DNA from: Naegleria gruberi
Taxonomy: Eukaryota
Reading direction: 5' to 3' (one strand)
NCBI GenBank assembly: GCA_000004985.1
Contig: GG738908.1
Length of the DNA stretch: 64,000 nucleotides
The translations under genes and the position numbers were made by a program. This document shows, in pieces, positions 15,503-64,000 of the stretch (the stretch's first letter is position 1; each line of letters opens with the position of its first letter). The notes beneath the pieces are model-generated. The model was given only the letters and a program-made list of their open reading frames with translations, ran no database searches and was not told where the DNA came from.

Positions 15503-18500
15503 TTATTGAATGAAAATGAAAGCAAGAATCAATGAAAACAATACAATGAAATAGAATTTGGAGGAAGATGCTTGGTTGACTGATTGTTGAGCTAAAGTTG
15601 GTGAAATGGCAAAATCAGTCAAGTGAACAGTTCTACATTTGACTCTGGTATTACTAATCTTGATAGATTCCAATCCAATTGATGAGAATTGTGATGATTG
15701 AGTATTGTAGAATTGACACAAACCCATCATTGTAGAATTCATTAAAGAAATGTCAACTTCAAACTCAATTGGGGAAGTGAGGTCTGAAATTTCGAGTTCA
15801 GTACCATTAGAAAGAATGTTAATTGAAATAATGGAAGAAACCAAATCAGTCTTGATGTGAGAGTAAATATTTTGTGAAATGATTGATAAGGAAATTGAAA
15901 CAGAAGCACTGGAATCTAATTGATATTTGGAAGAAAGCAACTTTTTCAAAGAATCCTTTGGTAAGCTCAAGGAAGAAAGTCCAATTTGAGAAGGTGAGAA
16001 ATTAAAGTTGTCAATTGTGCTCTTTACAACAGCTGTCTTGACAAGATTTGAAACTGAGACGCTCGATTGTCCATCAACCAATGACATGGCTGCTCCAACT
16101 TGACTAGCATCAATGACCTTCTTTAATTGAGAAGCAAAATTAGAATTTGATGTGGAAACAGTTGAAACCAATTGAGAAACTGTCTTGACAATGGAAGTTC
16201 TATCAGTAGATTGTAAGTTTTGCTTCAAAGATGTAGAAATACTCGACAATAAATTCAAAGTCTTTTGAGCTGTGTCTGATGTAATTTCTGATGGTTGATT
16301 GGTTAATCTTTCCAAAAGTCCAATCTTTGCGGTGTCAGAATCAGTTGAAGCAATAATTTGAGTCAAAATGTTACTTCTGATTGATGTCTTTTCAGTAGTT
16401 GTAAGCTTGGAATTGAGTAATGAATTGGCAATTTCCAAAGAACTCAATGAAGTGCTGCTAATCAAAGAGTTGACAAGTGAGCTAACTTCTTGAGCTGACA
16501 TGGTAGTAGTTGGATCTTGAATGGTCAAAACTTTAGTTTTTTCAACTGTTGTAAAAGCAGCATCTCTGACTGCAAAGAAAATTGTCACTTGTCCAGAGCT
16601 GAAAGTAGGAAGAGTAAATGTTGGGGATGTTGAGCTAGCACTCAATTCAGCAACATAAACTTTGCTATTTTCTTGAGTATAATAACCAAATGAATAGAGC
16701 ATGGTAAATGATTCTGGATCCGTGGCAACCAAACTAGCTCTTAAACTTGTCTTGACAGCAAGTGCAGAACTAATTTCCAATCCACTAGTAGCATTGACAA
16801 CCTTGAATGATGAAATAGTTGGTGATCTGTTAATGGTAATCTTTAAATCTTTTGAAACGGATACAGATCCAGTAGCAGAAACACGAGTAGCATTCAATCT
16901 GAAAGTATAAGTTGCTCCTTCTGTTAAACTATTTGCCTTAATGGCTAAATCTTTCTTGTCAGTTCCAGCAACTGAAATAGTTTCCAAATTGACTGCAGTT
17001 CCAGAAACTTGAGTCCACTTGTAGCTCAATGAAGAATACGCACTCAATGATGAAATTGTAGATTTGAAAACAATGTCCATCGATCCAGGAGTATAAACAG
17101 TTTGTCCAGAGGTGAAAGTTGGTGAACTGATAACAGCATCGAATGACAAATCACAACTTCCATAAACATAATTGGCTGGACAGGTACAAATATTTGGACC
17201 AGTACATTGTCCAAATCCACAACCACCCTTAGAGGAACAATCAAATACGTTACAATCACTTCCAGTATATCCTGACTTGCAAGTACAAACATTAGGTGAA
17301 GTACATGTACCATTTCCATTACAATTATTGAGAGTGGTACAAGTTGGAGTGTTACAACTAGCTCCTGTATATCCAGATTGACAAGTACAGACATTAGGAC
17401 CAGTACATTGACCACGATTCATGCAATTCGAAACCAAATTACAACTATATTGATTACAGGTACTTCCCTTATAACCAGCTTTACATAAACAAGTATTAAT
17501 GGCAAGACAATCACCATTTCCATTACAATTATTCACTCCAGCACATGATGGAGTTTCTCCAGGACGAACAGCTCTCAAGTAATTGCTAGTACATGCAGAG
17601 TTTTCACCCTGAGTGAGAAGATAGCCAACCGATGGATAATAATACTTGTATCCATTTGAATCTACTGCCTTAATATAATATTTTCTACAAGCAGTTCCAG
17701 AAGAAAGTCTAGTAGTATTATATTCGAAAGTTCCTGCATTCAAAGACGAATCAGTATACATACTCGATGTTGGAATACTCATTGGATATTCCACATCATT
17801 AATAAAAATGGAAACATTCAATGGAGCTACTCCCTTTCCCAAATCTGCCTTATGATAATAATTAGCAAGGAATGTAACTGTATCTGTGGCAAACGTAATA
17901 TGTGTAGCAGCAACGATTGGATTTGAAATACCATGTGAACCTGAGGCAAAATTCTGTGTCCAATAATCACTGAAACCTGTGGCTGCAACCTTTGGATAAT
18001 GTCCAACTCCAAGAAGGGTATATGAGCTTCCAAGAATGTTGGCTCTGTGTCCATCAGAATTAATCCAAGCCATGGTTACAGAAAGAGGACTTGTCTGTCC
18101 AGCTGCAATATTTTCAGCCATTGCTGCTGGTTTAGTGTAAAAAGTAGCAACTCTGGTGAAGGTTAGAGTTCCATCACATGAATTATGTTGAAAACAAGGT
18201 ACAGTTGCCATGTCTTTCGAATGGAATCGTCCAGATTCTACCAAATTGAAATGTTCGAAAAGTGGAGGCAAACCAGTGGTTTCCAATGACTTTTCTGCTT
18301 GGAATAAATTCAAGAATCTGGTCTTGAATCCTGAAGGAGACATTCTAGCCCAATTTGTTAAAACATGGACCGTCTTTTCGACATATCTCGAATAAGTGTA
18401 AACTAAATCAGAAAGTGCATTCACACCAACTTGATCACCAATTCCATAAAATTCCCAATTACCATTATCTGTGCTGCCATTGTTGGTTGAAGCACCACCA

Positions 18501-18685
18501 TCATTAGCAAAAGTGGCCATGACAGCACGTTTGTTTTTGGCAAATTTCAAATTGCTGTCAAATGCCATCGAAGGAGGATTTTGTGAAATGACAGATAGAG
18601 GTTCATGTTCTGCCAACACCAGAAAGAGGGAGGATAATACCAACACTACCAAGAGTGCATAATGCAACCTGTTACTCAACAACAT
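15503..18685 (-). CDS. Giant secreted protein: signal peptide, CAP/SCP (PR-1-like) domain, about 5 tenascin-type EGF repeats, and a long Ser/Thr-rich (mucin-like) tail. Single exon.
   Basis: Signal peptide 'MLLSNRLHYALLVVLVLSSLFLVLA'. CAP motif 'SDGHRANILGSSYTLLGVGHY' (compare 'GH[RY]xNIL...GVG' of SCP-like proteins). EGF repeats 'CNGNGDCLAINTCLCKAGYKGSTCN', 'CMNRGQCTGPNVCTCQSGYTGASCN', 'CNGNGTCTSPNVCTCKSGYTGSDCN'. The C-terminal ~500 aa are S/T-rich. Confidence 0.6.
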   Translation of the reverse strand: MLLSNRLHYALLVVLVLSSLFLVLAEHEPLSVISQNPPSMAFDSNLKFAKNKRAVMATFANDGGASTNNGSTDNGNWEFYGIGDQVGVNALSDLVYTYSRYVEKTVHVLTNWARMSPSGFKTRFLNLFQAEKSLETTGLPPLFEHFNLVESGRFHSKDMATVPCFQHNSCDGTLTFTRVATFYTKPAAMAENIAAGQTSPLSVTMAWINSDGHRANILGSSYTLLGVGHYPKVAATGFSDYWTQNFASGSHGISNPIVAATHITFATDTVTFLANYYHKADLGKGVAPLNVSIFINDVEYPMSIPTSSMYTDSSLNAGTFEYNTTRLSSGTACRKYYIKAVDSNGYKYYYPSVGYLLTQGENSACTSNYLRAVRPGETPSCAGVNNCNGNGDCLAINTCLCKAGYKGSTCNQYSCNLVSNCMNRGQCTGPNVCTCQSGYTGASCNTPTCTTLNNCNGNGTCTSPNVCTCKSGYTGSDCNVFDCSSKGGCGFGQCTGPNICTCPANYVYGSCDLSFDAVISSPTFTSGQTVYTPGSMDIVFKSTISSLSAYSSLSYKWTQVSGTAVNLETISVAGTDKKDLAIKANSLTEGATYTFRLNATRVSATGSVSVSKDLKITINRSPTISSFKVVNATSGLEISSALAVKTSLRASLVATDPESFTMLYSFGYYTQENSKVYVAELSASSTSPTFTLPTFSSGQVTIFFAVRDAAFTTVEKTKVLTIQDPTTTMSAQEVSSLVNSLISSTSLSSLEIANSLLNSKLTTTEKTSIRSNILTQIIASTDSDTAKIGLLERLTNQPSEITSDTAQKTLNLLSSISTSLKQNLQSTDRTSIVKTVSQLVSTVSTSNSNFASQLKKVIDASQVGAAMSLVDGQSSVSVSNLVKTAVVKSTIDNFNFSPSQIGLSSLSLPKDSLKKLLSSKYQLDSSASVSISLSIISQNIYSHIKTDLVSSIISINILSNGTELEISDLTSPIEFEVDISLMNSTMMGLCQFYNTQSSQFSSIGLESIKISNTRVKCRTVHLTDFAISPTLAQQSVNQASSSKFYFIVLFSLILAFIFIQ

Positions 18686-28239: not shown

Positions 28240-28352
28240 CCTTGTAAGCATCAGTGTTCAATACTAAACACTTGACAAATATGGAACTTTATAGTTCAAT
28301 CCGGAGTTGTACTATTTCGGAGTTCACTTCCGTTAGCCACAAATTAAAAAAA

Positions 28353-31300
28353 ATGTCATCACCACAACATGCAACCCTGCTTCTCGCCTTTTTNNNNNNN
28401 NNNNNNNNNNNNNNNNNNNNNNNNNNNNNNNNNNNNNNNNNNNNNNNNNNNNNNNNNNNNNNNNNNNNNNNNNNNNNNNNNNNNNNNNNNNNNNNNNNNN
28501 NNNNNNNNNNNNNNNNNNNNNNNNNNNNNNNNNNNNNNNNNNNNNNNNNNNNNNNNNNNNNNNNNNNNNNNNNNNNNNNNNNNNNNNNNNNNNNNNNNNN
28601 NNNNNNNNNNNNNNNNNNNNNNNNNNNNNNNNNNNNNNNNNNNNNNNNNNNNNNNNNNNNNNNNNNNNNNNNNNNNNNNNNNNNNNNNNNNNNNNNNNNN
28701 NNNNNNNNNNNNNNNNNNNNNNNNNNNNNNNNNNNNNNNNNNNNNNNNNNNNNNNNNNNNNNNNNNNNNNNNNNNNNNNNNNNNNNNNNNNNNNNNNNNN
28801 NNNNNNNNNNNNNNNNNNNNNNNNNNNNNNNNNNNNNNNNNNNNNNNNNNNNNNNNNNNNNNNNNNNNNNNNNNNNNNNNNNNNNNNNNNNNNNNNNNNN
28901 NNNNNNNNNNNNNNNNNNNNNNNNNNNNNNNNNNNNNNNNNNNNNNNNNNNNNNNNNNNNNNNNNNNNNNNNNNNNNNNNNNNNNNNNNNNNNNNNNNNN
29001 NNNNNNNNNNNNNNNNNNNNNNNNNNNNNNNNNNNNNNNNNNNNNNNNNNNNNNNNNNNNNNNNNNNNNNNNNNNNNNNNNNNNNNNNNNNNNNNNNNNN
29101 NNNNNNNNNNNNNNNNNNNNNNNNNNNNNNNNNNTATTGATGGTATCAATTCTTTCACAATTACTGGCTCTACATTTGCAAACAATTCCAAATTACACAT
29201 GACAACTGTTTTCAGCTCTACCTTGAGAGGTTTGACTTTTGAGGGAAATGAAAATGTTCTTTCTGCGAAAGGAATTGGTTCTTTTACATTGGAGCATTCA
29301 AATTTTACTCGCAATGGTAATCCAATTTATATTTCAGGAAATCAATTGACAAATCAATTTAGAAAAATTAGTTTTTGTTTATTTGAGGACAATTGGTCAA
29401 CCAGCAATGGTCTTATAACATTGGAACAGTTTCCCACACATGTGGAATTTAACAATTTCAGAAATAATTGGGCAGTGAATGGAGGAATAATTTATGCAAC
29501 TAGTTCCATAATTACTTTGGATAAAAATCAGTTTGTGGATACTTATGCAAGATTCATTGAAGGTTGTTTAGTTGATAATTGTGGAAATGGAGGAATTGCC
29601 TATATTTCTAATACTATTTTGTACATGTCCAATCTCATTATTCAAAATACTCAAGCAATTAGAGGAGGAATTGTTTATTCTGAGGGAAATTCTCGAATTC
29701 AAACCCAAAATTGTGATATTTCAGATAATATTGCTTCTTTGGCTGGTAATTTATTTTACTTTGGAGATGTTATTGATTTTAATGCCCAAAATTATTCGAA
29801 ATCTGACCTGAGTTCGAGGAAAACAACTCGAGCACTTTGGAGAACGGAATCTAGTCAACCTTACGATAATCAACGAATTGCCATCCAACCCGGGCAAACA
29901 ATACAATTGGATTTTGAGTATTTTGACATGTTTGACAACAGATTCAATAGAACAAATTCTGCTCCAATTATTAAGGCAAGTGATTCATCCAACATTCTTG
30001 TATCCCTCGTTTCAATTGATCCACTTTCCAATACTGACTTTAAATTCTTCTTGCAAGTGTCAGAAACTTCAAAAAGCTCAAATATTTCAGTATATCTCCC
30101 ATTCCATGACTTTACATTTGAGATTGATATTGATATTATTGGATGCCCTTTTGATTATGGTTTATCACCACTTTTAAATTCACACTACAACGTGTGTGTC
30201 TATAGAGGTTATATTATAATTGTATTCTCCTCTATTGGCATTGCAATCATTCTACTGGTTGCAATTTATTTATTGATCTATGTTGTTAAGAGATTACTCA
30301 AATTGAGAAAGAAGGAAATGACTGAAAAGGAAATTGCACAAAAGATTATTGATAAGAATTTTGTTTTTTCTATCAATACTGATAATGAGCACACTCCATT
30401 ATTATCAAAACTGGAAGTTGCCAAGATTAGTAATATCTTAATTCCAATTGAGGATATTGAAATCATCAAAAGAATTGGAGAAGGAGCTAATGGTACTGTA
30501 TACTTAGCTAAATGGCAAGGAAATCGTGTAGCTCTAAAAAGTTTAAAATTCGAAAGGGATAGCACTGACTTTGAAAATGAAGCATCTCTCCTTAATAATT
30601 TGAGACATCCTTCTATTGTGAGATTTTATGGAATTGTAGTGTCTTCTTCAGTTAAATACATGGTTACAGAGTTTGTGGAAAATGGAAGTTTGGATGCAGC
30701 CATTCATAATTCCAAAATTGGAAAGAAGAAACTTGATTTACAAACAAAATTACAAATTTTGAGAGGAATTGCAAATGGAATGAACTATCTTCATAATTTG
30801 AAAACTCCATGTCTTCACAGAGATTTGAAATGTCAAAATATTCTTCTCAATTCCAACATGGAACCAAAGGTTACAGATTTTGGATTGTCAAAATTGACTT
30901 TAAATTCAATGACATTGACTTGCAATATTGGAACAGCTCTTTACATGGTAAGTTTTCAAATTTAAGAGAGTTAAACCGAGTCAATCATTGTAAAGTCTCC
31001 TGAATTATTTGGAAGTGGTTACAAAATTTCATACAAATTGGACGTTTACAGTTTCTCCATCATCATGTACGAATTATTCTTTGAGGAAACTCCATTCTTT
31101 AGCTCATCAGCCAAGATGAGAAAATTTATCATTTCATCCACTGAACAATCACCAGAAGATGATCATGATACAATGAATTTTGGTTTTGCAATTCCAGTAA
31201 AAGTTTCGAAAGGAGAACGGCCAATGCTTCCCTGGACTAATGATGAGGAATGTGAAATGTGGATTAAGGAATTTATAGAACCCTATGAAGGAGGAGGAGG

Positions 31301-31475
31301 AGGAAATAATAGTAGTAGCAAAAGATCTTCATCCCTATTGAAAGTATTGCAAGTTAGCTTACAATATATTAACTTGATGAAGGAATGTTGGAGTCAGGAT
31401 CCAAATCAAAGACCGAACTTTTCCCAAATTGAGACGGAATTATTCAACATGATCAATGAAATTTCCAACCAATAA
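28353..31475 (+). CDS. Receptor protein kinase (TKL/tyrosine-kinase-like) with a parallel beta-helix (Pmp-like 'GGxIY') ectodomain: join(28353..30947, 30996..31475). The N-terminal part is interrupted by the 741-nt assembly gap 28394-29134.
   Basis: aaaaaaaATG at 28353. Repeated beta-helix motifs 'NGGIIYATSS', 'NGGIAYISNT', 'RGGIVYSEGN', 'AGNLFYFGD'. TM 'IIIVFSSIGIAIILLVAIYLLIYVV'. Kinase subdomains 'IGEGANGTVYLAKWQGNRVALK', 'HRDLKCQNILL', 'DFGLSK', then after the intron 'SPELFGSGYKISYKLDVYSFSIIMYELF' and 'CWSQDPNQRPNF'. Donor atg|GTAAGT at 30948 and acceptor ...gtaaag| at 30995. Confidence 0.7.
28394..29134. other. Assembly gap (741 N) inside the beta-helix receptor-kinase gene. Other gaps: 4088-4137 (50 N, plus a single N at 4068) and 61996-64000 (2005 N, to the end of the window).
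   Basis: Runs of N read directly from the sequence. The ORF-track 'XXXX' proteins across them are artefacts. Confidence 0.99.
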
Positions 31476-39821: not shown

Positions 39822-42800
39822 ATGGAGAAAGTACCACTCCAGCAAATATCAAAAAGAAAAGGTACGACCTTCAGATTCTTCCATGAAGCTAGTTGCAACG
39901 AGATAAATCAGCACAGAGCAGTGCTGTCATCATCATTGACAACAAGGAGTGGTTTGATCACACTGATGATTGTTGTTATAATAATGATGCTGGTTGTTGT
40001 GGAACATTCGGAAGCATCTCCCACAACAATAGCAGTTGCTGGTAGTGTGGGTAATACAGACGAGGCTTGGAATTTTCCACTGTATGGTACGGGTATATTT
40101 GTGGTGCCAAACAGTGATCCTTCATTGTTGCCAACTTTTTATGTTTCTGATGGAAATTTGTGTGTTGTGAGACAGATCATTGGAAATCAAAGTCGAGTGG
40201 TGGCAGGAACAGGTGAATGTTTACCAAACGGTGCTGATTCAGTTCCTGGAACAGAATCTACCTTGTATGGACCTACGAATATGTATTATGATGCTACTAC
40301 AGATTTTCTCTACATTTTGGATTCGTCATCTATTAGATTATTGGACATGAAGAGTGGAATAATTTCTAAAATGCTCATTACATTCAGTGGAACTAATTTA
40401 AACTCATTTTCTCAACCAAGTGGTATTACCATGTTCAATAAGGATATTTATGTGGCAGATACAGGAAAAGCTGTTGTGTGGAAAGTGCAAATTACCTATA
40501 GAAATGTTGGTACAGCAACAATTAGTGTTGGAAGTTTGAATAATATGAATAACAATAATTATTGTGATAATGTTTATGCCACCACGTGTAAACTTATCAA
40601 ACCTACAAGTATCTCTTTCTTCCCAGATGGAACCAAGGCAATTGCAGATGGAAGAAGAGTTATTATTGTTACTCCAACCAATTCGGCATATGAAGCTCCT
40701 GTATCCATGTCTATGAACAATCCAGTACATGTTGTCGCCTATGATGCATCCAACTTGTTGATTTCAGATCTAGGACTAGCACGTTTTATACAATTTAACA
40801 AGGATCAAGCACAACCAAATACTAATGTGGTATTGTCATCTTCTTGGGCAAGAAATACTTATTTTGGACTTGTGAAACAAGCAGACAATTCTAAAAATGT
40901 ATACTTCCTCACAGGTCAAGATTACACAACAAAGAGAAGTCAAATTGTTTCGTTTAACTTTATTGATAGCGATTTACCAAGTACTTCTACAACACCATTA
41001 TATGGCATGTATGACTCTGGATTCCAGTTTGATAATCCACATAATGCATTGAGTGTTTACATGCCTAGTCCACAACAAATGAGACTAACTTCAAGTAATC
41101 AATTGTATTTCCCAATTTTTAATTCTGCTGTTGTAAAGGTAGATTTGAATTCTGGATTAGTGACAAGAATTGCTGGAAGTATTACACAATTTGGATATAA
41201 TCAAGACAGTATCCCTGCAACCATAGCTCTGATGACTAGACCAAATACTGTTTTACAATTGGATTCCGGAGATTTAATCATTTCAGATACAGGTAATAAC
41301 AGAATTAGAAAAATTGATTCAAATGGAATTATAACTACAATAGTTGGTACAGGAACGCAAGGAAATAGTGGAGATTATGGGCCTGCAAGTCAATGCCAAT
41401 TAAATGGTCCACAAGGACTGGCAACACCTCCAACAAGCATGAAAGGTCAATTTTTGTTTGATTTTGCTGACACTAATAATAACAGAATTAGAAGAATACA
41501 AAATGACTTGACAGTTATACCCCTATTAAGCAATAATCCTAATAATGATGGAATTAACGGACCAAATGGAATAATGTACACGCCAAATGGTGATCTTTAT
41601 ATCGCCAGTCAAGGAAATCACAAAATAATGAAATACAGTAATTCACAATTGAGTACTGTTGCTGGAAATGGTTATGCAGGTTATTCAGGAGATGGAGGAC
41701 CAGCCAGAAATGCCAAGTTGAACTATCCTGCAGATGTTACAGTTTCCTCCACAGGTGAAGTTTATATTGCAGGTATGTTTTGAAGAAATTTAATGTAATT
41801 TTTAAACGATTCATCTACTAGATTGGGGAAATAGAGCTGTAAGAAAAGTTTTCAGAAATGGAACAATTATTACTCTTATTGTTAGTGGCGGACTTTCGGA
41901 CTTGAATGGTGTTACATTGACACCGAATGGAGATTTGTTGTATTCAACACAATTATGGGTCAAGCTGTATATGGAGGGAGATTCAGGAAGTTGTATTGAT
42001 AAGAATACATGCAATAATCATGGCAGTTGTGTGAATGGAAAGTGTGTTTGTGATAGTGGATGGAGAGGAAATTTGAATTGTGGAACATTTTCATGTGACA
42101 TTACACCACCACCTCATTCTTCACAATGTATTGGTCCAAATCAATTTTCTTGTCAAGATGGGTGGACAGGATTAAATTGCCAGGAACCAGTTTGCTTTGG
42201 AACTCCAGCAAACACCACAACAGTATGCAGTTCACACGGTAAATGTATTTCCAATAATACATGTAATTGTGTGAGTGGATGGAGAGGCAATTCAGATTGC
42301 AGTGCATTTTCATGTGATGTAAAATCTGAACATGGAGAGTATTGTATTGGACCTAATACCTACAAATGTCAAGATGGCTGGATTGGTGATTTATGTGACA
42401 TTCCACTTTGTAATGGAATTCCAGCAAATAATCCAGCAGTTTGCAATTCACACGGACAGTGCATTTCCAATAATACATGTAATTGCTTTAGTGGATGGAG
42501 AGGAAATAGTATTTGCACTCAATTTACATGTGATGGTGTCAATAATTGTCAACCTCATGGTCAATGCATTTCTAATAATACTTGTAAATGTAGTACTGGT
42601 TATGGTGGAAATGGATGTAACGATAGAATGTGCTTTGGTAAATGGGGTCAAGCAGGTTGCAGCAATAATGGATATTGTTCAAATACTGACAAGTGCAGTT
42701 GTTTCCCTCTCTATTTTGGACAACAATGTCAGTGGCTTGATTGTAATCCCTCTTCAAATGATCAATCCATTAATTCTACTAAGGGCTGTTCTTCAAATGG

Positions 42801-44082
42801 AAACTGTACTGTTATTGACAATGATCAAACCAGACAAAACTCAACAATTTGTAAATGTAACGAAGGATTTGATGGGCTGTATTGTCAAGAAAAGAAGTCA
42901 TCAGGAAATGGTGGAACTGTTGCAGCTGTTGTCATTGTTGTGTTGCTTTTCATTTGTTGTTTGATTGCTTTCATAGCAGTTGGTGGTTTTGTTTATTACA
43001 AGAAACGAGCAAGTTCCAAATCAGAGGAATTTGAGAATTTGATTCCAAAATCTGTTAACGACGATTGGACTTTGAGAACTGTTATTCCTCCAGAGGAGGC
43101 AACTGTGAAAAGTACAGCCTCTTCTGTTAAATCTGAAAATAGCTTTATACGGTCAATTAGAAAGCAACTGGGTAGTTCAAGTACAACATCTTCTGTATCA
43201 ACCATTAACACAAGAGATCATTTCCATATTAGAGATAAAGAATATGTGAAATCAAAGAAATTGGGATCAGGTGCAAGTGGAACAGTTTTCATGTTTGATG
43301 AGTTGACCAATAAGGAACAAGTTGCTGTGAAAATTATTGAAGTTTTAAATCCAAATGGAAGCGAATTTAAGGAAGTTGTGAACATGTTTGAATTGAGTGA
43401 AGAAGCAAATCCTCACATTGTTCCAATTCTAGGATGTACAATGGTTGAAAATGGAGGATATATTTGTATCTTGATGCCATTATACAAATGTGATTTGAGA
43501 AATTGGATGTATTCCAATAAGGAGACGGTTCCAATCGAAATAATTGTCGAAATTGTGAAACAAATTGCATCAGCACTTCAATATCTCCATTCTAAGAACA
43601 TGGTACACAGAGATTTGAAACAAAGTAATATATTTGTTTCAAAATCACCTGATCTTTCAAAGAATAATGTGAATGTTTCATCTTTCCAACTTTGTGTTGG
43701 AGATTGGGGATCTTCAAGATATCAAACAAGATCTTCTTTAACTGCTTATGAAGGAACAATTCAATACAGTTCACCAGAGTCAATTGTAAAAGCAGAATTT
43801 TCACCAAAAAGTGATGTTTGGAGTCTTGGATGTATTTTATATCAATTATTATCAGCAGATTACAATACTTGTTTGATGAGAGTGAAACAAACCTCAATGA
43901 ATGACCAATCAGATGTTCAAATCATAGGAAATGTTGAAAAATTCTTTTCAAAACGTTCAGATCATTCACACAAACTTTACAAAATCATTTGTGATTTAAT
44001 GTTGGAAATGTTGAGATTTAATCCAGAGGAGAGAATTTCCACAGATGAAATTGTCCAAAAACTCTCAATGAACAATGTTTAA
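39822..44082 (+). CDS. Receptor-type protein kinase with NHL-repeat beta-propeller ectodomain, about 8 tenascin-type EGF repeats, a TM helix and a cytoplasmic kinase: join(39822..41772, 41822..44082).
   Basis: aaaaaaaATG at 39822 with N-terminal signal anchor 'GLITLMIVVIIMMLVVV'. NHL repeats 'LIISDTGNNRIRKID', 'FDFADTNNNRIRRIQ', 'LYIASQGNHKIMKY'. Donor g|GTATGT at 41773 and acceptor ...ctactag| at 41821 give '...VYIAG'+'DWGNRAVRKVF'. EGF repeats 'CNNHGSCVNGKCVCDSGWRGNLNCGTFSC'. TM 'TVAAVVIVVLLFICCLIAFIAVGGFVYY'. Kinase 'GSGASGTVFM', 'VAVKII', 'HRDLKQSNIFV', 'GDWGSS'. Confidence 0.7.
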
Positions 44083-44144
44083 TAATATTATTTAATAATA
44101 AATTAAATATTTACGAATATTTATAAAATTTTGATAAGAAAAAA

Positions 44145-45221
44145 ATGCAACAAGTTGTTTTATTATTGGATGATGATTTGTCTCAATCGTTTGGTGATAT
44201 CGGAAGTGATTGGTTGTTTATAAAATTATCAACACAAATGCGAACTAAATTATTGCAAAATTCACACGAATTTCACACCACAAACTTTAAACTCGTGCAC
44301 ACGATTGGTGAGTGCAAACGAAAAGGCTCTTCCGAATATTTGTTGAATGATCCTATGGGTTTAAAAATTAGCAAATTGATGAATTGGTTGTTAATATGTG
44401 ATTCGGGAAATAAGAGAGTACAAATATATGACAGATTTAATTTTGAATACTTGTATTCGATTCGGATGAAAACTCAACCTCAATATGTGGAAATTGAAGA
44501 GTGGCATGATCAGTGTGGATATTATGCAGATGAGAATTCATTATTACTATACATTACTTGTTCGAATCAGGTTTTAATCAAGATGAAAGTTACTGTAGTG
44601 ATGGAAGAAAATGAAAAGAAACTTCATGTTGAGGAATTGTGGAATACTCGAGAATTATTGGAAAGAAATGAACTAAGTGCAGAGTATGGGCTATTCTTTG
44701 AGAGATTCAACCAAGAATATTTGAATTCTGTCTTGTATGTTTGTGATTCAACCAAGAGAAGAATTGTCATGTTGAATGCCCTTGATGGAAGCATTCTCAA
44801 TCAATTATTTCTGAAAAGAAAGGAGAAATTCAGTTCAGCAGTCTCTATTCTAATCGATTCTAAAAAGAAATGGATTTTAGTGAGCGAAATGGCTGGTCAA
44901 CGTGTGAAAATTTTAGATTACAAAACTAGACAATTATTACACTCACTTGGAAAGTATGGAAAAGAGTTGGATGAATTTTCATATCCTAGAGGAATATTCT
45001 TGGAAGAGAAGATGAATAGATTATATGTGTGTGATGCTTCAAATAATAGAATTTCGCTGATTGACTTGGACAAGTTGGAATTTGTGGAATATTTTGGAGG
45101 AAAGAATTCGAATATGGAACAAGTTCAATTGAAAACACCAACTTCAGTGGTGATTGATGATTCGACTGGAACTCTTCTAGTTTCTGATAACAAATTAGAT
45201 CAAGTTTTCATCTTTAGATGA
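44145..45221 (+). CDS. NHL-repeat (six-bladed beta-propeller) protein, probably soluble.
   Basis: aaaaaaaATG at 44145. NHL blades 'LLICDSGNKRVQIYD', 'LYVCDSTKRRIVMLN', 'ILVSEMAGQRVKILD', 'LYVCDASNNRISLID', 'LLVSDNKLDQVFIF'. Confidence 0.6.
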   Translation: MQQVVLLLDDDLSQSFGDIGSDWLFIKLSTQMRTKLLQNSHEFHTTNFKLVHTIGECKRKGSSEYLLNDPMGLKISKLMNWLLICDSGNKRVQIYDRFNFEYLYSIRMKTQPQYVEIEEWHDQCGYYADENSLLLYITCSNQVLIKMKVTVVMEENEKKLHVEELWNTRELLERNELSAEYGLFFERFNQEYLNSVLYVCDSTKRRIVMLNALDGSILNQLFLKRKEKFSSAVSILIDSKKKWILVSEMAGQRVKILDYKTRQLLHSLGKYGKELDEFSYPRGIFLEEKMNRLYVCDASNNRISLIDLDKLEFVEYFGGKNSNMEQVQLKTPTSVVIDDSTGTLLVSDNKLDQVFIFR

Positions 45222-51758: not shown

Positions 51759-54700
51759 ATGAGCGAATCACATGATATCGGCAACAGTGGTGCTCTCAAA
51801 CATCATCATCATCAATTAGATAATAGTAGTAAGGAAAATGGTGGCTCAATTGTTAGCTCTTCATCAAATACCCAATCAAATATCAGCAAGGGCGCATTTT
51901 CCTTCATGAAGAGCATAATATATGATAAGCTTTTTAATTTTCTAGCAATGGCCAAATCTTCCGAGAGCAGAAATGGAAGAAAATGGCAATCAATCTATTA
52001 TTTGTTTCATATCTATTTCTTTTTCGTCATCTTAATAATACCTACTCTATCAACATATTATCCAAACCTCTATACATCAGATACAACACAATATGCATCA
52101 AGAATTCAGAGTTTCCCTCTCCCTTTGGATACTATGGTGGTTTTGTATTTAGAGTTTTGAACTACTTCATAACGTTTGGCGTTGATACTCTTAGTGCTCC
52201 CTATTATTTTACTATTGCACTGTCATCAGTCATCATATTACTTTACTCATGCTTCCCACTCTTGGTTGTTTACACTCACAAAAAACTCTATGGAAGCGCC
52301 AAGAAACGACTCAATTCTTTTGTGGGCATATTTTCCTTCCTTGTTCTTGTTTTTGCTCCTTTCAGTATCTTTGTAATGACTAGTTTTATTGATTGTGATT
52401 TGAAAACAACAATAAGTGTGGATGGTTTTGATGTATATCCACTGATCAGGTTTCCAACCTATGCATGCTACGATTCAAGCAATGTCATTCTCATTGTAAT
52501 TAACTATATAGGAATGGCCATCTTGTTGGGAAGTTCTTTGATGGCTGTACATATTCTTCCAATGGGTAATCCAGAATCTTCCATACCCTTTCTTTCTGAA
52601 AACCAATTCACATTGATGGGAATTATTGGAAACACCATTTTTAGAATTGGTATTGTTTTTGCAATTCCATATTATCTACTTTATTTGAGAGCTATTGTAC
52701 ACGCAGTATTTTCAATTGTTTCAATAGTCTATCTTTTTTTTGGAGTGCCATTCTTTAAAAGATATGAAAACTCTGTTTATTCTGCAGTATTATTTGGTTC
52801 ATTTGGATCAAGTATTGGAGTTTTGATTAGCTGCCTTGTAAATACTTCAAACGATAATAATTTGGGAGCTGGAATGCTTGGTCTGGTATTTGGATTAACA
52901 ATAATTTTCATGTCAATTGGATATATTGTTATGGAAATTTACACAAGATTAATGGTACATAAAATTAGAAAGATTTTCCACCAATTCTTGAACCAAACAA
53001 CAGACTCCATGTCAGAGGATGATGGCTTGACAAGCATAATGGAAAGATACTGTGCTGAGATATTTTCGACCATTTCAAACACATCACTAACAGCATTCAG
53101 AATGTATATGCAATTCAATATCAAGAAAAAGGTTGGCTATGCTGTTAACGAAAGAACGGATAGCAATATCATTTTGGTATTCATCAAGACATATGCTCCC
53201 AAGAAGAATTTCGATTCACCAATCCTATTATTGTACTCTTCCTTATTTATTTCTCATCAATGGACTGATCCTAATAGGTATTCCTTTGCACTTTATCTAT
53301 TGAAGAGAACTGAGAAGAATCATAACAATAATTATTTTGTAAAACTTTCAGTCTTGTGCAGATGTAGAGATATGGAAATGCATATTGACAAGTCACATAA
53401 TGGAAGAGGAAATTTGGAAGTGAAAGCACTTTTGGATAAACTGGAACAAAAGCAAGAGGAATTGAAGAATGTACATAGAGCATTTTGGAAAGAAATGACA
53501 GCAGAACGTCCTAAAGAGGAGAAAATCTACACTATCAATGCTATTTCAGCAGAAATTATGACATACTGTGATGAATCCTATGAGCACTTACTAGCAAACT
53601 TTCCTCATGATAAAACAGTGATAAGATACTATGCTAATTATGTTGAAAATATCAAGTTGGATAAGGAACTATCTACTGGACTCTTTGAAGAAGCACAAGT
53701 TTTAGAAGAGGAAGAATCTAAAAACTCGAGAACTTCAACCTATCTCTTCAACACCTCAAGAAAGGGATCCAAATTCAAAACCAACCGAGTAGCTCCAGCA
53801 AATTCTCACAGTTTTTCAGACAATTTGAGAACCAGTGAAAATAGTCTTACATCTTTTACCCAAAGAAGACCATCATCTCCTACAAATCACACCATTACTC
53901 CGGAATTGAGTGTTATCGACAAACAAATACTCGAAGATTCAGATGATTTTCGTGGGGTAGAAGAAGAATTAACTCCACAACAACTTCACTACCGTCGGGC
54001 TGCTGTCTTTAGAAATGCTTTAAACACTCCATATGAATCCTCTATTAGAAAATCTATTTTCATAGGACTTGCTGTACTCTCAGTTCTTTTATTGGCTGCT
54101 ATTTTTTCTGTCTCTGTTTATTATGATATTGAAGTTACGAAAACATATTTGGTAAAATCCAGCTGTCTTACTATGAGTTCACCTGGTGCAATGCTTCGAG
54201 ATATTAGATTGATGCAAATTCTAACTGAAACATATGGAAATTTGAAATGGAAAATACCTGAAAATGGAACCGTAGAGTACCAAGAATTACAGACCTATAT
54301 GAGCTATTATACCAAAGCTTTTACTTTCCAACAACAAAATTTATTGAACCTTCAAGCTGTTTCACAATCAGGATCTTTTTCTGAAAGAATGTATCAGGAC
54401 TATACAGTTGAGGACAAGACCATAATGGTACCAATTTCTAACGATACATCTTCAAACACACTTCTAGAATATACAAACACATTCAAAAAAACAACATCAG
54501 TCAGAGAAATTACTCAAGAATTATTAACCCATGCCAATTCTGTTCTAGAATTACAAATAGACTATAACAAATCTCTAAATAGTTATCCATTCATGTACAT
54601 TTTTCAAAATAGAAAGTATGCAGCTGATGCTTTTTACACCTTTTGCAAAGCGTAAGTTTTTAAATTTTGAATGCTATCTTAATATCATCTTACAGATTTC

Positions 54701-57332
54701 AAGAAAGTGAAAAAATTCACATTCAAGAATCTAGAGATATCCTAGGCCAAATTCTGCTTGGATGCTCTGTTGGATTTTCTACTATAATTCTAATTAGTAT
54801 CTCAATTTCAAGATTAGAAATGGAAAAATCTTCAATTATATTTAAACTATATAAAACCATTTCGAAGGATATTATTGGAGTTATTTTTCAAGAGTTGGAT
54901 AAGAAACATAAGAATGATGAGCTTAAAGGACTTAAAAAGAAACGACTTCCAAAACCAAAACATACAACAGTAATTGTTTCATTTATTATTATTGCAATAT
55001 TTTTGGTTTGTTCTGGAATTTTCTATCAGGAAATGTTGACAAATGTTGAAAGAGCAAATATTGCCATGCAAAATGTTGATATTGCATCTCTAATGATCAG
55101 AACAACCAATAGAATTACTCTGAGATTGAATGAAATGTTTTCCTATCTCAGTATTCCACTAGGAAAATCGGTAAATAATCCTGCTATTGTTACCGCTTCT
55201 GTTATTGCACAATACAGAGCAGATGTGAGAACATTTACAACAACTGTACAATCTCTATTCTCTCAATTAGTTTACGGAACTAACAGTACAAACTCAATTA
55301 TTGGCATTTACCCTAAAATTGATGAAATGTTAAAGGGAGATCCTACTTGTGATAATGTTACCTTATTGTATTGTGGAAGTTTGGAACAAATGGTATCAAT
55401 TTATACTATTTTGGGTGGAGGAATGTCTGAAAACTTTTTCAATCCAATCTATGCCAAAAACTCTAAAGAAGTGTTGAATTATCTTGTAAAAATGTATAAT
55501 ATGAACGATATGGTTTTCGAAAAGCTTGTTGATTTCATGGATTTGTTGGTTACCTATACTGGTCAAGCTAGTTTATCATCAACTATTGGACTTTTTATTG
55601 CTGGATTGATAGTCTTGTTAATTTCCAATTACACCATGTATTTATCTATTATTACCTATGACAGACAAGTTTCCAGTTTGAGAGGAATGTTGAACTATTT
55701 ACCTTACGAGTGGATTGAATCGAATGAAACTGTAAAGAATTTTGTTTTCTATAATTCCTTGCCACTCGTTAATCAAAGGAATAATTTAAAGAAGGGAAGT
55801 GATACACTCAACAATTTACTTCATTCCATGGTTGATGGTGCAGTGCTTTCTAACGAGAAGGGAGAAATTCTTCTATTCAACACTGCATGTCAAAGACTAT
55901 TCTCTAAAATTCCTTCAGAAGTAATGGGACTCAAATTCTACTCATTATTTGATAAGGCCAACGAATCTAAATTAATAGACATTGCCAGAAATTGTAGAGA
56001 TTACCTTGTTGAAGGAGAGAACAATAAGAATGGTGAAGTTATGGAGTTGAATTGTATCAGAAAGAATCTATCCACATTCCCTGCACAAGTTAATATTTTC
56101 GTCACAAGAGATGGTGATAATAAGGTTGTCATTGTATGCTTTATCAAGGATATTACTACAGAAAAGAAGGCAAATACATTACTAAGTGAAGAAAAGAAGA
56201 ATTCTGAAAAGTTGTTGAGAAATATTCTACCAGAATCTGTTGCATTGAAATTGAAGAGTGGTAACAGCTTTGTTGCTGAAAGATTTAATGATGTTAGTGT
56301 ATTCTTTTCAGATATGTAAGTATTCCACAATTATTATTATTCATAATATTCATATATATTCCATAATTATTATTCAATATATTAATATTACTCAAATTAA
56401 ATAGGGTTGGATTTACAGCATTATCATCGGATATGAATCCATCTGATTTGATATTACTATTGAATAATGTAGTGAATGGATTTGATGATTTGACTGACAA
56501 GTATGAATTGGAAAAGATTAAAACTATTGGAGATGCATACTTTTGTGTTGGAGGTTTACCAATCAATCCACAATCTGATCACCCTGAAAGAACGCTCCGA
56601 TTTGCTATGGATTGTTTTAGTGTAATTAGAGGATTCAACCAAGCTACAAATGGAGAGAAGGTTATCAATATTAGGTTAGTATTATTATTATTTGTAATAT
56701 TTAGGTAGATGTTAATATTGTTGTTGTGCTCATCCATCTATATAGAATTGGTATTAATACTGGATCAGTTGTAGCTGGTGTTATAGGAAAGAAGGTAAGT
56801 TTTTATAATTGTTATTAATAATATTCATGATGATAATTGTTGAATAGAAATTTGCATATGTGAGTGTTGTTATTATTAAAACATTATTAATTGTTTAATA
56901 TTTTCATACTGATGCTGAATGATGAATAATTATTATTAGGATCTGTGGGGAGTAAGTAAATTATAATTAAAATTCAAATACTAACCAAACATCAAGGATA
57001 CAATCAACACTGCCTCCAGAATGGAATCTAACAGCAAGCCAGGGCGTATTCAAATTTCACGATCAACCTATGAAAGGTATGTGTTAAAATCTTCTATTTG
57101 TTGATATATTATTCTACTTTATAGAGTGTACGATTTAGGATTTGAATTTGAAGAAAGAAGTATTGATGTGAAAGGAAAGGGTGTATGTACTTGTTACTTG
57201 ATGAATGAAAGGTATCACGATAATCCACTGGATATTCAAGTTGTTGGTAATAATACTGTTGTTCCACCTGTGGCTTCCGAGAATCCAATCATGACAGCCT
57301 TGTCTGATGACCAGACTTCATTGACACAATAA
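51759..57332 (+). CDS. Polytopic membrane class III nucleotidyl (adenylyl/guanylyl) cyclase with PAS domain, 8 or more exons: 51759..~52100 (frame change near 52000-52140), ..54651, 54696..56315, 56405..56674, 56745..56793, 56848..56859, 56940..56951, 56997..57076, 57134..57332.
   Basis: N-terminus 'MSESHDIGNSGALKHHHHQ', then about 10 TM helices, further TMs at about residues 700 and 900, and PAS 'MVDGAVLSNEKGEILLFNTACQRLF'. The cyclase core spans the introns: 'RFNDVSVFFSDM|VGFTALSS...KIKTIGDAYFCVGGLP...INIR|[59 protein letters not shown]...'. Donors are GTAAGT, GTTAGT, GTGAGT or GTATGT and all acceptors end in AG, as listed. Confidence 0.7.
56848..56951 (+). other. Two consecutive 12-nt microexons (56848..56859 'KFAY' and 56940..56951 'DLWG') within the cyclase catalytic domain.
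   Basis: ...gttgaatag|AAATTTGCATAT|gtgagt and ...attattag|GATCTGTGGGGA|gtaagt. Their inclusion restores the conserved cyclase segment GxxxP(R/K)YxLWGDTVN ('[22 protein letters not shown]'). Confidence 0.65.
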
Positions 57333-61177: not shown

Positions 61178-64000
61178 TGTAAATTTGATGGTTTCATTTC
61201 GTATATTGATAGATATATAAAGGTCAGGTCAGTATCAACTTTTGAATTATGGACTTTGAGAAGTCAAATGTTTGGGACGTGAATCTACTCATTAGATTTC
61301 ATAGGTATTGCTAATAAAGGAACATTTCATTGATTTATTGATCATAACGGTCAAATTGAGTTGAATGGAAGTGAATCACATGTTGATTCATCGTGGTTGG
61401 GTAGTTTCGCCACGTAGTGGTGCAACTACCAACCTTTGTAGATTGAATCAGGTTGATTTGCATGCAATATGAATAAGTAACATTATCAAGAGTGATTATT
61501 CACCAATTCAATGACCAATATTCAATAATCGGTTTGATTCAATCAATAGCTTAATCATCAAGCTTTGAATATTAATATTCCAGTAATCAACGGCAGTCTA
61601 TTTTTAAATTTAATCAAAGACCATATATAGTATCTTGACTTTTATGATATGTAAACTATCTAGATGTGTTCTATATTGAATAATCTATATGAAAATGAGA
61701 AGAAATAAAATTAACTCTTAAATTGAGTTTATTTATATTACTATATATGGTATTATTTCTTACAGAGTCTTCCACAGAACCCACTCTTGAACTAATAATT
61801 GTACTAGAGCGTGTGAGAAACATAATGGTGGTGAAAGTGATCAGTAACTTGTTGAAATGACTGAGATGGAATGTAAACTATGGTCTAAATGTCATGTATT
61901 TGTAACTAGACAGTGTCAACTCCGCCAAAGTGCCTTAAAATAGATTGATATCATCAGATACACTTCTACGCACCACATATACCTCATAGAACGAGTTATG
62001 ACATTATATATTAGANNNNNNNNNNNNNNNNNNNNNNNNNNNNNNNNNNNNNNNNNNNNNNNNNNNNNNNNNNNNNNNNNNNNNNNNNNNNNNNNNNNNN
62101 NNNNNNNNNNNNNNNNNNNNNNNNNNNNNNNNNNNNNNNNNNNNNNNNNNNNNNNNNNNNNNNNNNNNNNNNNNNNNNNNNNNNNNNNNNNNNNNNNNNN
62201 NNNNNNNNNNNNNNNNNNNNNNNNNNNNNNNNNNNNNNNNNNNNNNNNNNNNNNNNNNNNNNNNNNNNNNNNNNNNNNNNNNNNNNNNNNNNNNNNNNNN
62301 NNNNNNNNNNNNNNNNNNNNNNNNNNNNNNNNNNNNNNNNNNNNNNNNNNNNNNNNNNNNNNNNNNNNNNNNNNNNNNNNNNNNNNNNNNNNNNNNNNNN
62401 NNNNNNNNNNNNNNNNNNNNNNNNNNNNNNNNNNNNNNNNNNNNNNNNNNNNNNNNNNNNNNNNNNNNNNNNNNNNNNNNNNNNNNNNNNNNNNNNNNNN
62501 NNNNNNNNNNNNNNNNNNNNNNNNNNNNNNNNNNNNNNNNNNNNNNNNNNNNNNNNNNNNNNNNNNNNNNNNNNNNNNNNNNNNNNNNNNNNNNNNNNNN
62601 NNNNNNNNNNNNNNNNNNNNNNNNNNNNNNNNNNNNNNNNNNNNNNNNNNNNNNNNNNNNNNNNNNNNNNNNNNNNNNNNNNNNNNNNNNNNNNNNNNNN
62701 NNNNNNNNNNNNNNNNNNNNNNNNNNNNNNNNNNNNNNNNNNNNNNNNNNNNNNNNNNNNNNNNNNNNNNNNNNNNNNNNNNNNNNNNNNNNNNNNNNNN
62801 NNNNNNNNNNNNNNNNNNNNNNNNNNNNNNNNNNNNNNNNNNNNNNNNNNNNNNNNNNNNNNNNNNNNNNNNNNNNNNNNNNNNNNNNNNNNNNNNNNNN
62901 NNNNNNNNNNNNNNNNNNNNNNNNNNNNNNNNNNNNNNNNNNNNNNNNNNNNNNNNNNNNNNNNNNNNNNNNNNNNNNNNNNNNNNNNNNNNNNNNNNNN
63001 NNNNNNNNNNNNNNNNNNNNNNNNNNNNNNNNNNNNNNNNNNNNNNNNNNNNNNNNNNNNNNNNNNNNNNNNNNNNNNNNNNNNNNNNNNNNNNNNNNNN
63101 NNNNNNNNNNNNNNNNNNNNNNNNNNNNNNNNNNNNNNNNNNNNNNNNNNNNNNNNNNNNNNNNNNNNNNNNNNNNNNNNNNNNNNNNNNNNNNNNNNNN
63201 NNNNNNNNNNNNNNNNNNNNNNNNNNNNNNNNNNNNNNNNNNNNNNNNNNNNNNNNNNNNNNNNNNNNNNNNNNNNNNNNNNNNNNNNNNNNNNNNNNNN
63301 NNNNNNNNNNNNNNNNNNNNNNNNNNNNNNNNNNNNNNNNNNNNNNNNNNNNNNNNNNNNNNNNNNNNNNNNNNNNNNNNNNNNNNNNNNNNNNNNNNNN
63401 NNNNNNNNNNNNNNNNNNNNNNNNNNNNNNNNNNNNNNNNNNNNNNNNNNNNNNNNNNNNNNNNNNNNNNNNNNNNNNNNNNNNNNNNNNNNNNNNNNNN
63501 NNNNNNNNNNNNNNNNNNNNNNNNNNNNNNNNNNNNNNNNNNNNNNNNNNNNNNNNNNNNNNNNNNNNNNNNNNNNNNNNNNNNNNNNNNNNNNNNNNNN
63601 NNNNNNNNNNNNNNNNNNNNNNNNNNNNNNNNNNNNNNNNNNNNNNNNNNNNNNNNNNNNNNNNNNNNNNNNNNNNNNNNNNNNNNNNNNNNNNNNNNNN
63701 NNNNNNNNNNNNNNNNNNNNNNNNNNNNNNNNNNNNNNNNNNNNNNNNNNNNNNNNNNNNNNNNNNNNNNNNNNNNNNNNNNNNNNNNNNNNNNNNNNNN
63801 NNNNNNNNNNNNNNNNNNNNNNNNNNNNNNNNNNNNNNNNNNNNNNNNNNNNNNNNNNNNNNNNNNNNNNNNNNNNNNNNNNNNNNNNNNNNNNNNNNNN
63901 NNNNNNNNNNNNNNNNNNNNNNNNNNNNNNNNNNNNNNNNNNNNNNNNNNNNNNNNNNNNNNNNNNNNNNNNNNNNNNNNNNNNNNNNNNNNNNNNNNNN

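Follow-up and report, generated by a model that had tools for sequence, protein, structure and literature searches.

Animal and plant receptor protein kinases are well understood, whereas those of most protist lineages are poorly charted. Three described systems come closest to the gene treated here. PknD of Mycobacterium tuberculosis joins a six-bladed beta-propeller sensor through a transmembrane (TM) helix to a Ser/Thr kinase (PMC3322341), the propeller being of the NHL class by Pfam classification and PDB sequence match. Teneurins are defined by an FN-plug, NHL and YD-shell superfold with a C-terminal toxin-like domain (PMC13018210). The constitutively active kinase CK2alpha carries a DWG motif whose Trp adds a hydrogen bond and disfavours the DFG-out state; this motif has been described as unique to CK2alpha and is tied to a locked active conformation (PMC9608649). 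Here we analyse a stretch of 64,000 nucleotides of Naegleria gruberi NEG-M (GenBank assembly GCA_000004985.1, contig GG738908.1), called the window below, which is AT-rich (about 33% G+C) and contains at positions 39822-44082 a gene whose product is probably a type I, single-pass receptor Ser/Thr kinase bearing an ectodomain of NHL propellers and EGF repeats.

Four of the proteins predicted in the window are exact N. gruberi NEG-M GenBank entries on one scaffold of 259,034 nt, namely the receptor XP_002671107.1 (from Met55), XP_002671113.1, XP_002671152.1 (CAP and EGF) and XP_002671153.1 (P450), and all four carry the label "predicted protein". The features of the receptor gene, in window coordinates, are as follows (aa, amino acids).

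39822..44082, + strand: receptor kinase gene, NAEGRDRAFT_81646 / XP_002671107.1, 1403 aa from the first ATG
39822-41772, + strand: exon 1
41773..41821, + strand: intron, 49 nt, phase 1, GTATGT...CTAG, interrupting one NHL blade
41822-44082, + strand: exon 2
39951..40001, + strand: N-terminal hydrophobic segment found by a Kyte-Doolittle scan, aa 44-60, GLITLMIVVIIMMLVVV, then EHSEA-SPTT
40014..41021, + strand: N-terminal, membrane-distal propeller, degenerate NHL-like, aa ~65-400, about 6 blades
41022..41955 (intron included), + strand: C-terminal canonical NHL propeller, aa ~401-695, about 6 blades
41992..42885, + strand: eight teneurin/tenascin-type EGF repeats, aa 708-1005, Pfam EGF_TEN and EGF_Teneurin
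42916..42999, + strand: TM helix, aa 1016-1043, TVAAVVIVVLLFICCLIAFIAVGGFVYY, then KKR
43000..43242, + strand: Ser/Thr-rich cytoplasmic juxtamembrane segment, aa 1044-1124
43243..44061, + strand: protein kinase domain, aa 1125-1397, Pfam Pkinase 1.4e-43
43264-43281, + strand: kinase G-loop (GxGxxG), within LGSGASGTV, aa 1131-1139
43321-43332, + strand: kinase VAVK (K1154)
43606-43629, + strand: kinase HRDLKQSN, aa 1246-1253
43702-43710, + strand: kinase DWG (D1278, W1279, G1280)
43771-43779, + strand: kinase SPE

The gene is spread over two open reading frames (ORFs; 39822-41783 and 41902-44082) that lie in different frames, and removal of the intron joins them into one coding sequence of 4212 nt and 1403 aa. 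The spliced junction restores a single NHL blade, EVYIA being followed directly by DWGNRAVRKV, and the resulting protein is identical to XP_002671107.1 (P0390) from Met55 onward. Two related genes bear on this model. The first is carried by a 2.4-kb metagenome contig from ENA (L001), which has 81.6% identity to the receptor gene over 2.3 kb and comes from a different Naegleria lineage (a sister species); its intron occupies the same position, is 45 nt long (bases 547-591) and has diverged in sequence, and the frame is kept in both. The second, the N. gruberi paralogue P0241, has the same architecture and runs uninterrupted across the position of the receptor splice junction. The single-gene structure proposed in the first-pass annotation of the window thus stands on the intron, the rebuilt blade, the GenBank identity, L001 and the continuous paralogue.

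The same annotation had proposed the order NHL, about eight EGF repeats, TM helix and kinase, and this order agrees with the Pfam matches, the repeat signatures and the hydropathy profile. Pfam detects Pkinase (E 1.4e-43, aa 1125-1397), NHL (3.6e-18), TEN_NHL (2.7e-11), EGF_TEN (5.9e-22) and EGF_Teneurin (2e-18) in the receptor, the two NHL models supporting the NHL repeats. The ectodomain had been described as an NHL propeller; its NHL character holds, but its size had been underestimated, as sequence and predicted structure indicate about 12 blades arranged as two tandem six-bladed propellers on a stalk of eight EGF repeats. BLASTP against an NHL protein of N. lovaniensis is collinear across aa 106-673 of the receptor. 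An AlphaFold2 (AF2) model of the part encoded by exon 1 (aa 65-650; mean predicted local distance difference test score, pLDDT, 76) is all-beta and shows about 6 + 5 blades, the remaining 1.5 blades being encoded in exon 2. The distal propeller in this model has about six four-stranded blades (aa ~92-379, pLDDT about 80, mostly 70-88) and is followed by a disordered linker, and the canonical NHL blades at aa ~421-650 have pLDDT > 90. The case for the distal propeller is therefore made by BLASTP collinearity together with a model of moderate confidence.

Foldseek searches with the ectodomain model recovered NHL propellers (9IFO, SOQ1 and NHLRC2) and the tandem-propeller ectodomains of LRP6 and BT4663. 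The C-terminal propeller, in which both a match to the NHL models (PF01436 / PF25021) and a six-bladed propeller fold are found, carries D..NNRIR motifs at aa 489 and 550, and its PDB sequence matches include a teneurin-like protein of Bacillus inaquosorum (9IFO, 4e-58), the PknD sensor (1RWI, 1e-6) and teneurin-4 (1.5e-5). Transfer of the NHL module from bacteria was considered, the best matches being bacterial, and the scores are driven by the repeats. The eight EGF repeats were counted by the terminal signature C-x-C-xx-G-[WYF]-x-G-xx(x)-C or a shorter form of it, and aa 696-1020 contain 44 Cys. The ectodomain as a whole carries nine NxS/T sequons.

The receptor has only two hydrophobic segments on the Kyte-Doolittle scale, aa 44-60 and aa 1016-1043. 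The former reads as a signal peptide or a signal anchor, and in the paralogue P0241 a canonical signal peptide stands at the N-terminus. Translation from 39822 places 43 residues ahead of the hydrophobic segment, and Met49 is a further candidate start besides Met1 and Met55. In the region 39822-39984, the deposited start at Met55 falls in the middle of that segment, and the upstream ATG at 39822, which lies in an A-rich context, restores the full hydrophobic core; the GenBank N-terminus of XP_002671107.1 is probably truncated. Shortening of the 43-residue extension by a 5' intron (GTACGA at 39862) was considered and rejected, because both candidate acceptors lead to frameshifts and stops.

An active RD-type Ser/Thr kinase is the most probable reading of the cytoplasmic domain, judging from its residues. 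In an alignment of 36 kinases, the near-invariant catalytic columns are all canonical in the receptor: G1132/G1134, K1154, H1246/D1248/K1250/N1253, D1278/G1280, P1302/E1303, D1315/W1317/G1320 and R1388. E1174 falls in the alphaC Glu column once a one-residue gap is allowed, and both K1154 and E1174 are kept in P0241 and in P0121, the product of L001. The hallmarks of the kinase superfamily (PF00069) are accordingly present, namely the GxGxxG loop, the beta3 Lys with the alphaC Glu, HRDxKxxN and the DFG Asp (as DWG). The sole catalytic departure is the replacement of Phe by Trp in DFG; Asp and Gly are retained, and the four family sequences that span the motif all read VGDWGSSR. Pseudokinases are marked by the loss of at least one of three residues, beta3 Lys, HRD Asp and DFG Asp, and here K1154, D1248 and D1278 are present and conserved. 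The catalytic loop reads HRDLKQSN, not HRDLAARN or HRDLRAAN as in receptor tyrosine kinases, and the P+1 segment GTIQYSSPE is Ser/Thr-like. An AF2 model of the kinase has a complete bilobal fold (pLDDT 85; predicted template-modelling score 0.87), and its best Foldseek matches, with 20-25% identity, are active CDK2/cyclin A, ULK1, CDK5, ERK7 and TTK. By sequence, the PDB offers only weak matches without specificity, headed by ULK1/2, ABL1 and CDK6 at about 1e-17 to 1e-19.

The family to which the kinase belongs appears, from the sequences found, to be restricted to N. gruberi-like amoebae. An exhaustive HMMER search, in which the cytoplasmic part was run against 1.84 billion cluster representatives, yielded four close relatives only, everything else having at most ~34% identity. 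These four are the following.

P0241: N. gruberi XP_002670873.1 (NAEGRDRAFT_74151), 1395 aa, same Pfam architecture, 53% identity, on another scaffold
P0121: product of L001; its 90% cluster includes the receptor of the window
P0243: 154-aa fragment from a Logan assembly, 77% identity
P0313: 103-aa N. gruberi fragment, NAEGRDRAFT_62737, 61% identity

A profile search revealed no further family members, and scanning metagenomes with this profile brought up generic kinases only, none above 42% identity. Exact-sequence contig look-ups with P0390, P0241 and two further NHL proteins of the window, of 358 and 520 aa, gave no match. Absences from the word-indexed search are weak evidence, for it overlooked the 53%-identical, 1395-aa P0241 despite many shared exact words of 8-11 residues; with the full-length receptor, its results were dominated by repeat-rich bacterial NHL proteins, and the receptor's own entry and cluster were missing from the list. 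The family is already in the databases and undescribed in the literature that we searched, in which no paper on these genes and no report of this domain combination was found. The kind of protein is nonetheless familiar, a conceptual variant of known receptor kinases.

The scaffold of the paralogue differs from that of the receptor (largest contig 261,328 nt versus 259,034 nt). Sequence identity between the two proteins falls from 60% in the kinase and 59% in the EGF repeats to 44% for the NHL propeller, 32% for the distal propeller and 26% for the juxtamembrane segment. The juxtamembrane segment is the least conserved region (26% against the paralogue, 74% against the sister species), and the distal propeller is the folded domain least conserved against the paralogue. 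Against L001, the ratio of non-synonymous to synonymous substitution rates (dN/dS, Nei-Gojobori) comes to 0.136 over the whole comparison. The NHL region stands at 0.17 and the EGF repeats at 0.116, and the kinase N-lobe, at 0.056, has the lowest value in the gene and 94% aa identity to L001. The pattern of identity to the paralogue would suit a ligand-binding tip that diversifies while the signalling core is conserved.

Two side observations concern L001. Its bases 33-75 hold an additional 43-nt intron inside an NHL blade, between ISDTG and NNRIRKID (compare window position ~41295), which is absent from N. gruberi NEG-M and which we read as a recent gain or loss between close Naegleria lineages. 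Its final ~90 nt (past base 2341) have no match to the receptor gene, and the contig end may be chimeric.

PknD resembles the receptor in being single-pass and in combining an extracellular NHL-type propeller sensor with a cytoplasmic Hanks-type Ser/Thr kinase, and bacterial kinase-TM-NHL proteins of this kind (P0068 and P0076, PknD-like and actinobacterial) are among the homologues. However, the order of domains is reversed in PknD, with the kinase at the N-terminus and the propeller at the C-terminus; PknD is built with a single propeller, lacks an EGF stalk and has the usual DFG; no specific relationship links the two kinase domains; and the receptor is eukaryotic, with a signal peptide and an intron. 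With its opposite order and added EGF repeats, the receptor does not belong to the PknD type, and the resemblance is convergent in logic rather than a matter of orthology. For both extracellular modules the best Pfam models are teneurin ones, and the best PDB sequence match of the NHL propeller is the bacterial teneurin-like protein BiTLP (9IFO); teneurins, too, have eight EGF repeats. In contrast to teneurins, the receptor has no YD/RHS shell, FN-plug, TTR or toxin domain (no Pfam match to YD/RHS, FN-plug or Tox-GHH). Teneurins are type II with EGF before NHL, whereas the receptor is type I, with NHL before EGF and a cytoplasmic kinase; it thus has the EGF and NHL types of teneurins without their topology, superfold or toxin domain.

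Nearer relatives show how the modules are distributed within Naegleria. The paralogue XP_002670873.1 has an identical architecture and the same DWGSSR start of the activation segment, with 32-60% identity depending on the domain. The N. lovaniensis protein C9374_000344 (P0012) and the 520-aa protein of the window share the NHL-to-EGF module with the receptor but have no kinase. The C-terminal end of P0012 is a GPS-like stalk plus a TM helix; the 520-aa protein is secreted. The paralogue, P0012 and the 520-aa protein are annotated as predicted or hypothetical only. CK2alpha has DWG in the DFG position at the start of the activation segment, but it is soluble and has no specific sequence relationship to the receptor kinase, CK2 being absent from the best 60 PDB sequence matches and the best 50 Foldseek matches of the kinase. 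The protein is therefore classed as a receptor Ser/Thr kinase of the eukaryotic protein kinase superfamily with an NHL ectodomain, neither a tyrosine kinase nor a CK2 relative. The view that an NHL ectodomain on a receptor kinase is unusual holds for eukaryotes, within the reach of our searches, but not more widely, given the bacterial PknD-type kinases and the extracellular NHL and EGF modules of teneurins.

Taken as a receptor, the protein might work as follows. The signal segment would send about 950 residues (distal propeller, NHL propeller and EGF stalk) outside the cell, and the TM helix with its positive-inside KKR would leave the 80-residue juxtamembrane segment and the kinase inside. 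The propellers, especially the distal one, would bind an extracellular ligand or surface, and the EGF stalk would keep them away from the membrane. The distal propeller is likely to be the specificity determinant because it is the fastest-evolving folded domain. Binding would cluster receptors and so lead to trans-autophosphorylation of the activation loop (DWGSSRYQTRSSLTAYEGT), which is to be expected of an RD kinase with conserved Ser/Thr/Tyr residues there (candidate sites S1281/S1282, T1286, S1288/S1289, T1291, Y1293 and T1296); clustering would also lead to phosphorylation of the Ser/Thr-rich juxtamembrane segment and of cytoplasmic targets. If CK2alpha is a guide, the Trp in DWG probably works against the DFG-out state, in which case control would be exerted mainly by clustering and activation-loop phosphorylation. 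Naegleria gruberi is a bacterivorous amoeba, and bacterial prey surfaces or other amoebae are candidate ligands.

Several points count against this interpretation. It is built on sequence and predicted structures; catalytic competence is read from residues, ligand-induced dimerisation is borrowed from other receptors, and DWG could act otherwise in a kinase so divergent (at most 34% identity outside the family). The distal propeller has no Pfam match, the confidence of its model is moderate (pLDDT ~50-88), and the AF2 propeller model stops short of the last 1.5 blades. The N-terminus is uncertain, a cleavable signal and a signal anchor both fitting the sequence.

Two neighbouring genes also encode NHL proteins; they are listed here with the gaps in the window.

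44145..45221, + strand: NHL-only gene, 358 aa, Pfam NHL 1.1e-10, no hydrophobic segment
58964..60526, + strand: secreted 520-aa protein (XP_002671113.1), signal peptide, one NHL propeller (TEN_NHL 8e-37), about 3-4 teneurin-type EGF repeats
28394-29134 and 62016-64000: assembly gaps

A soluble NHL gene directly downstream of the receptor and a secreted NHL and EGF gene 15 kb further on had been noted in the first-pass annotation, and both are present, the latter without TM helix or kinase. The 358-aa gene begins 62 nt past the receptor stop codon. BLASTP finds no similarity between its product and either the receptor or the 520-aa protein. The product has neither a signal peptide nor a hydrophobic segment; its best PDB match is the NHL domain of Thin/TRIM32 (2.9e-21), followed by TRIM2, TRIM3 and Brat. 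Pfam detects NHL only, without the RING, B-box and coiled-coil regions that precede the propeller in TRIM-NHL proteins. We judge it to be a cytosolic propeller of TRIM-NHL type, of a different NHL subfamily and compartment and outside the receptor system, and its adjacency to the receptor looks coincidental. Its exact sequence is absent from the protein collection in which its neighbours are present, and public annotation either models the gene differently or omits it. In BLASTP the 520-aa protein and the receptor are collinear on both sides of the NHL-EGF boundary (30-32% identity, E 2e-59), and on this evidence the former is a distant relative of the membrane-proximal module of the receptor ectodomain. 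Further TM or kinase exons 3' of this gene were ruled out, as no coding-like ORF lies between 60526 and the contig end at 62015.

The receptor reading has been set against four others. The least probable is an artefact, in which a secreted NHL gene and an EGF-TM-kinase gene were wrongly joined into one model. ORF 1 does have an in-frame stop 11 nt past the proposed donor, and ORF 2 could begin at an internal codon; however, ORF 2 alone would have no signal peptide, and two separate genes are effectively excluded because splicing rebuilds an NHL blade that is complete only across the junction, because the position and frame of the intron are kept in L001 despite its diverged sequence, and because the paralogue shows the same architecture without a break. 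Rather more room, though still little, is left for the cytoplasmic domain being a pseudokinase, the receptor then acting as a scaffold that signals through recruited kinases. This was the possibility raised when the HRDLKQSN and GDWGSS motifs, both correctly recognised, were first noted in the sequence. The canonical DFG Phe is indeed replaced, the kinase is an orphan (best PDB E ~1e-19, identity outside the family at most 34%), and purifying selection is equally expected of a functional pseudokinase. Pseudokinase status is nevertheless unlikely, because the catalytic residues are all present (K1154, E1174, D1248, N1253, D1278 and the Gly-rich loop, conserved in the paralogue), DWG is invariant in the family and native to constitutively active CK2alpha, and dN/dS is low, the ATP-binding N-lobe (0.056) being the most constrained part of the gene. 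An alignment of kinase subdomains had been suggested as the way to decide the matter, and the 36-kinase alignment favours an active kinase.

The other two alternatives concern the ectodomain and its neighbours. That the ectodomain is chiefly adhesive in the manner of teneurins, serving cell-cell, cell-substrate or cell-prey contact that the kinase reports, is possible but unlikely as the whole account, and it overlaps with the receptor reading. The EGF and NHL parts do match the teneurin-specific models EGF_TEN, EGF_Teneurin and TEN_NHL, kinase-less Naegleria NHL-EGF-TM proteins such as N. lovaniensis P0012 resemble adhesins, and the PknD sensor domain has been reported to adhere to host laminin (PMC3322341); on the other hand, the receptor is without the YD shell, FN-plug and type II topology of teneurins, and N. 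gruberi is unicellular, so that homophilic adhesion answers no known need. Very improbable, in our view, is the proposal that the three NHL genes form a local receptor/ligand or receptor/decoy set that arose by tandem duplication. They lie inside 21 kb, and the 520-aa protein is collinear with the receptor over the NHL-EGF boundary. Yet the 358-aa protein, which had been counted as a family member, is dissimilar to the other two, has no signal peptide and is closest to cytosolic TRIM-NHL domains. The 520-aa protein, said to have the same ectodomain architecture as the receptor, is about 31% identical, with one propeller and about 3-4 EGF repeats instead of two propellers and eight; a decoy should retain the ligand-binding part, and the distal propeller is missing from this protein, as are half of the receptor's EGF repeats. 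The true paralogue of the receptor, 60% identical in the kinase, sits on another scaffold. Because the 358-aa protein is dissimilar and the 520-aa protein only 31% identical, neither ligand or decoy pairing nor recent local duplication is supported. Domain shuffling, also suggested as an origin, is more plausible, since the teneurin-type EGF module occurs behind a CAP domain as well (gene 15503-18685), which points to general reuse of the module.

Under the receptor reading, the gene shows Naegleria (Discoba) building single-pass receptor Ser/Thr kinases from extracellular modules familiar from bacteria and teneurins. A more specific combination of ideas is offered only tentatively: Heterolobosea may have assembled a PknD-like sensor kinase independently of bacteria, animals and plants, with a fast-diversifying head of tandem NHL propellers for ligand binding, a teneurin-type EGF stalk and a lineage-specific, DWG-locked, active-like kinase gated purely by clustering through the ectodomain, as a small family for recognition of prey (by the bacterial surface) or kin. 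If so, few receptor-kinase families would have been defined earlier in Discoba. DWG is, moreover, fixed here in another kinase lineage, independent of CK2alpha, which makes the gene a natural test of the regulatory effect of this motif. The receptor is a tidy, testable example that does not overturn current understanding. The annotation, in turn, can be improved, as the deposited start apparently lies inside the signal sequence and the name is only "predicted protein".

Three other genes of the window deserve mention. At 28254-31475 (+ strand), a second, unrelated receptor-like kinase gene is cut by the N gap at 28394-29134. Its ectodomain has "GGI.Y" repeats (GGIIYATSS, GGIAYISNT and GGIVYSEGNS) with a beta-helix or Pmp-like look and no Pfam match, and is followed by a TM helix (YIIIVFSSIGIAIILLVAIYLLIYVV) and an intron-split kinase with a canonical DFG (PK_Tyr_Ser-Thr, 8.6e-36), the C-lobe exon of which lies at 31038-31475. 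Two receptor-kinase architectures in 64 kb suggest a diverse repertoire of receptors in Naegleria, and this second gene makes the same point as the first about the building of such kinases.

The gene at 15503-18685 (- strand), XP_002671152.1, encodes a protein with a CAP/SCP domain and teneurin-type EGF repeats; it also has a signal peptide, a long stalk rich in Ser/Thr and, at the C-terminus, a TM helix. Ahead of the TM helix is a GPS-like motif (KCRTVHLTDFAI), and P0012 has the same membrane-proximal motif (KCKTYHLTSFGI); by analogy with adhesion G protein-coupled receptors, this could be a site of autoproteolysis. At 51983-56319 (+ strand) lies the gene for a large multi-pass membrane protein with a PAS_9 match (3.4e-12) and a cyclase-like FNDVSVFFSDM at the ORF boundary, probably a membrane-bound PAS-nucleotidyl cyclase, one of the many in Naegleria, with further exons downstream.

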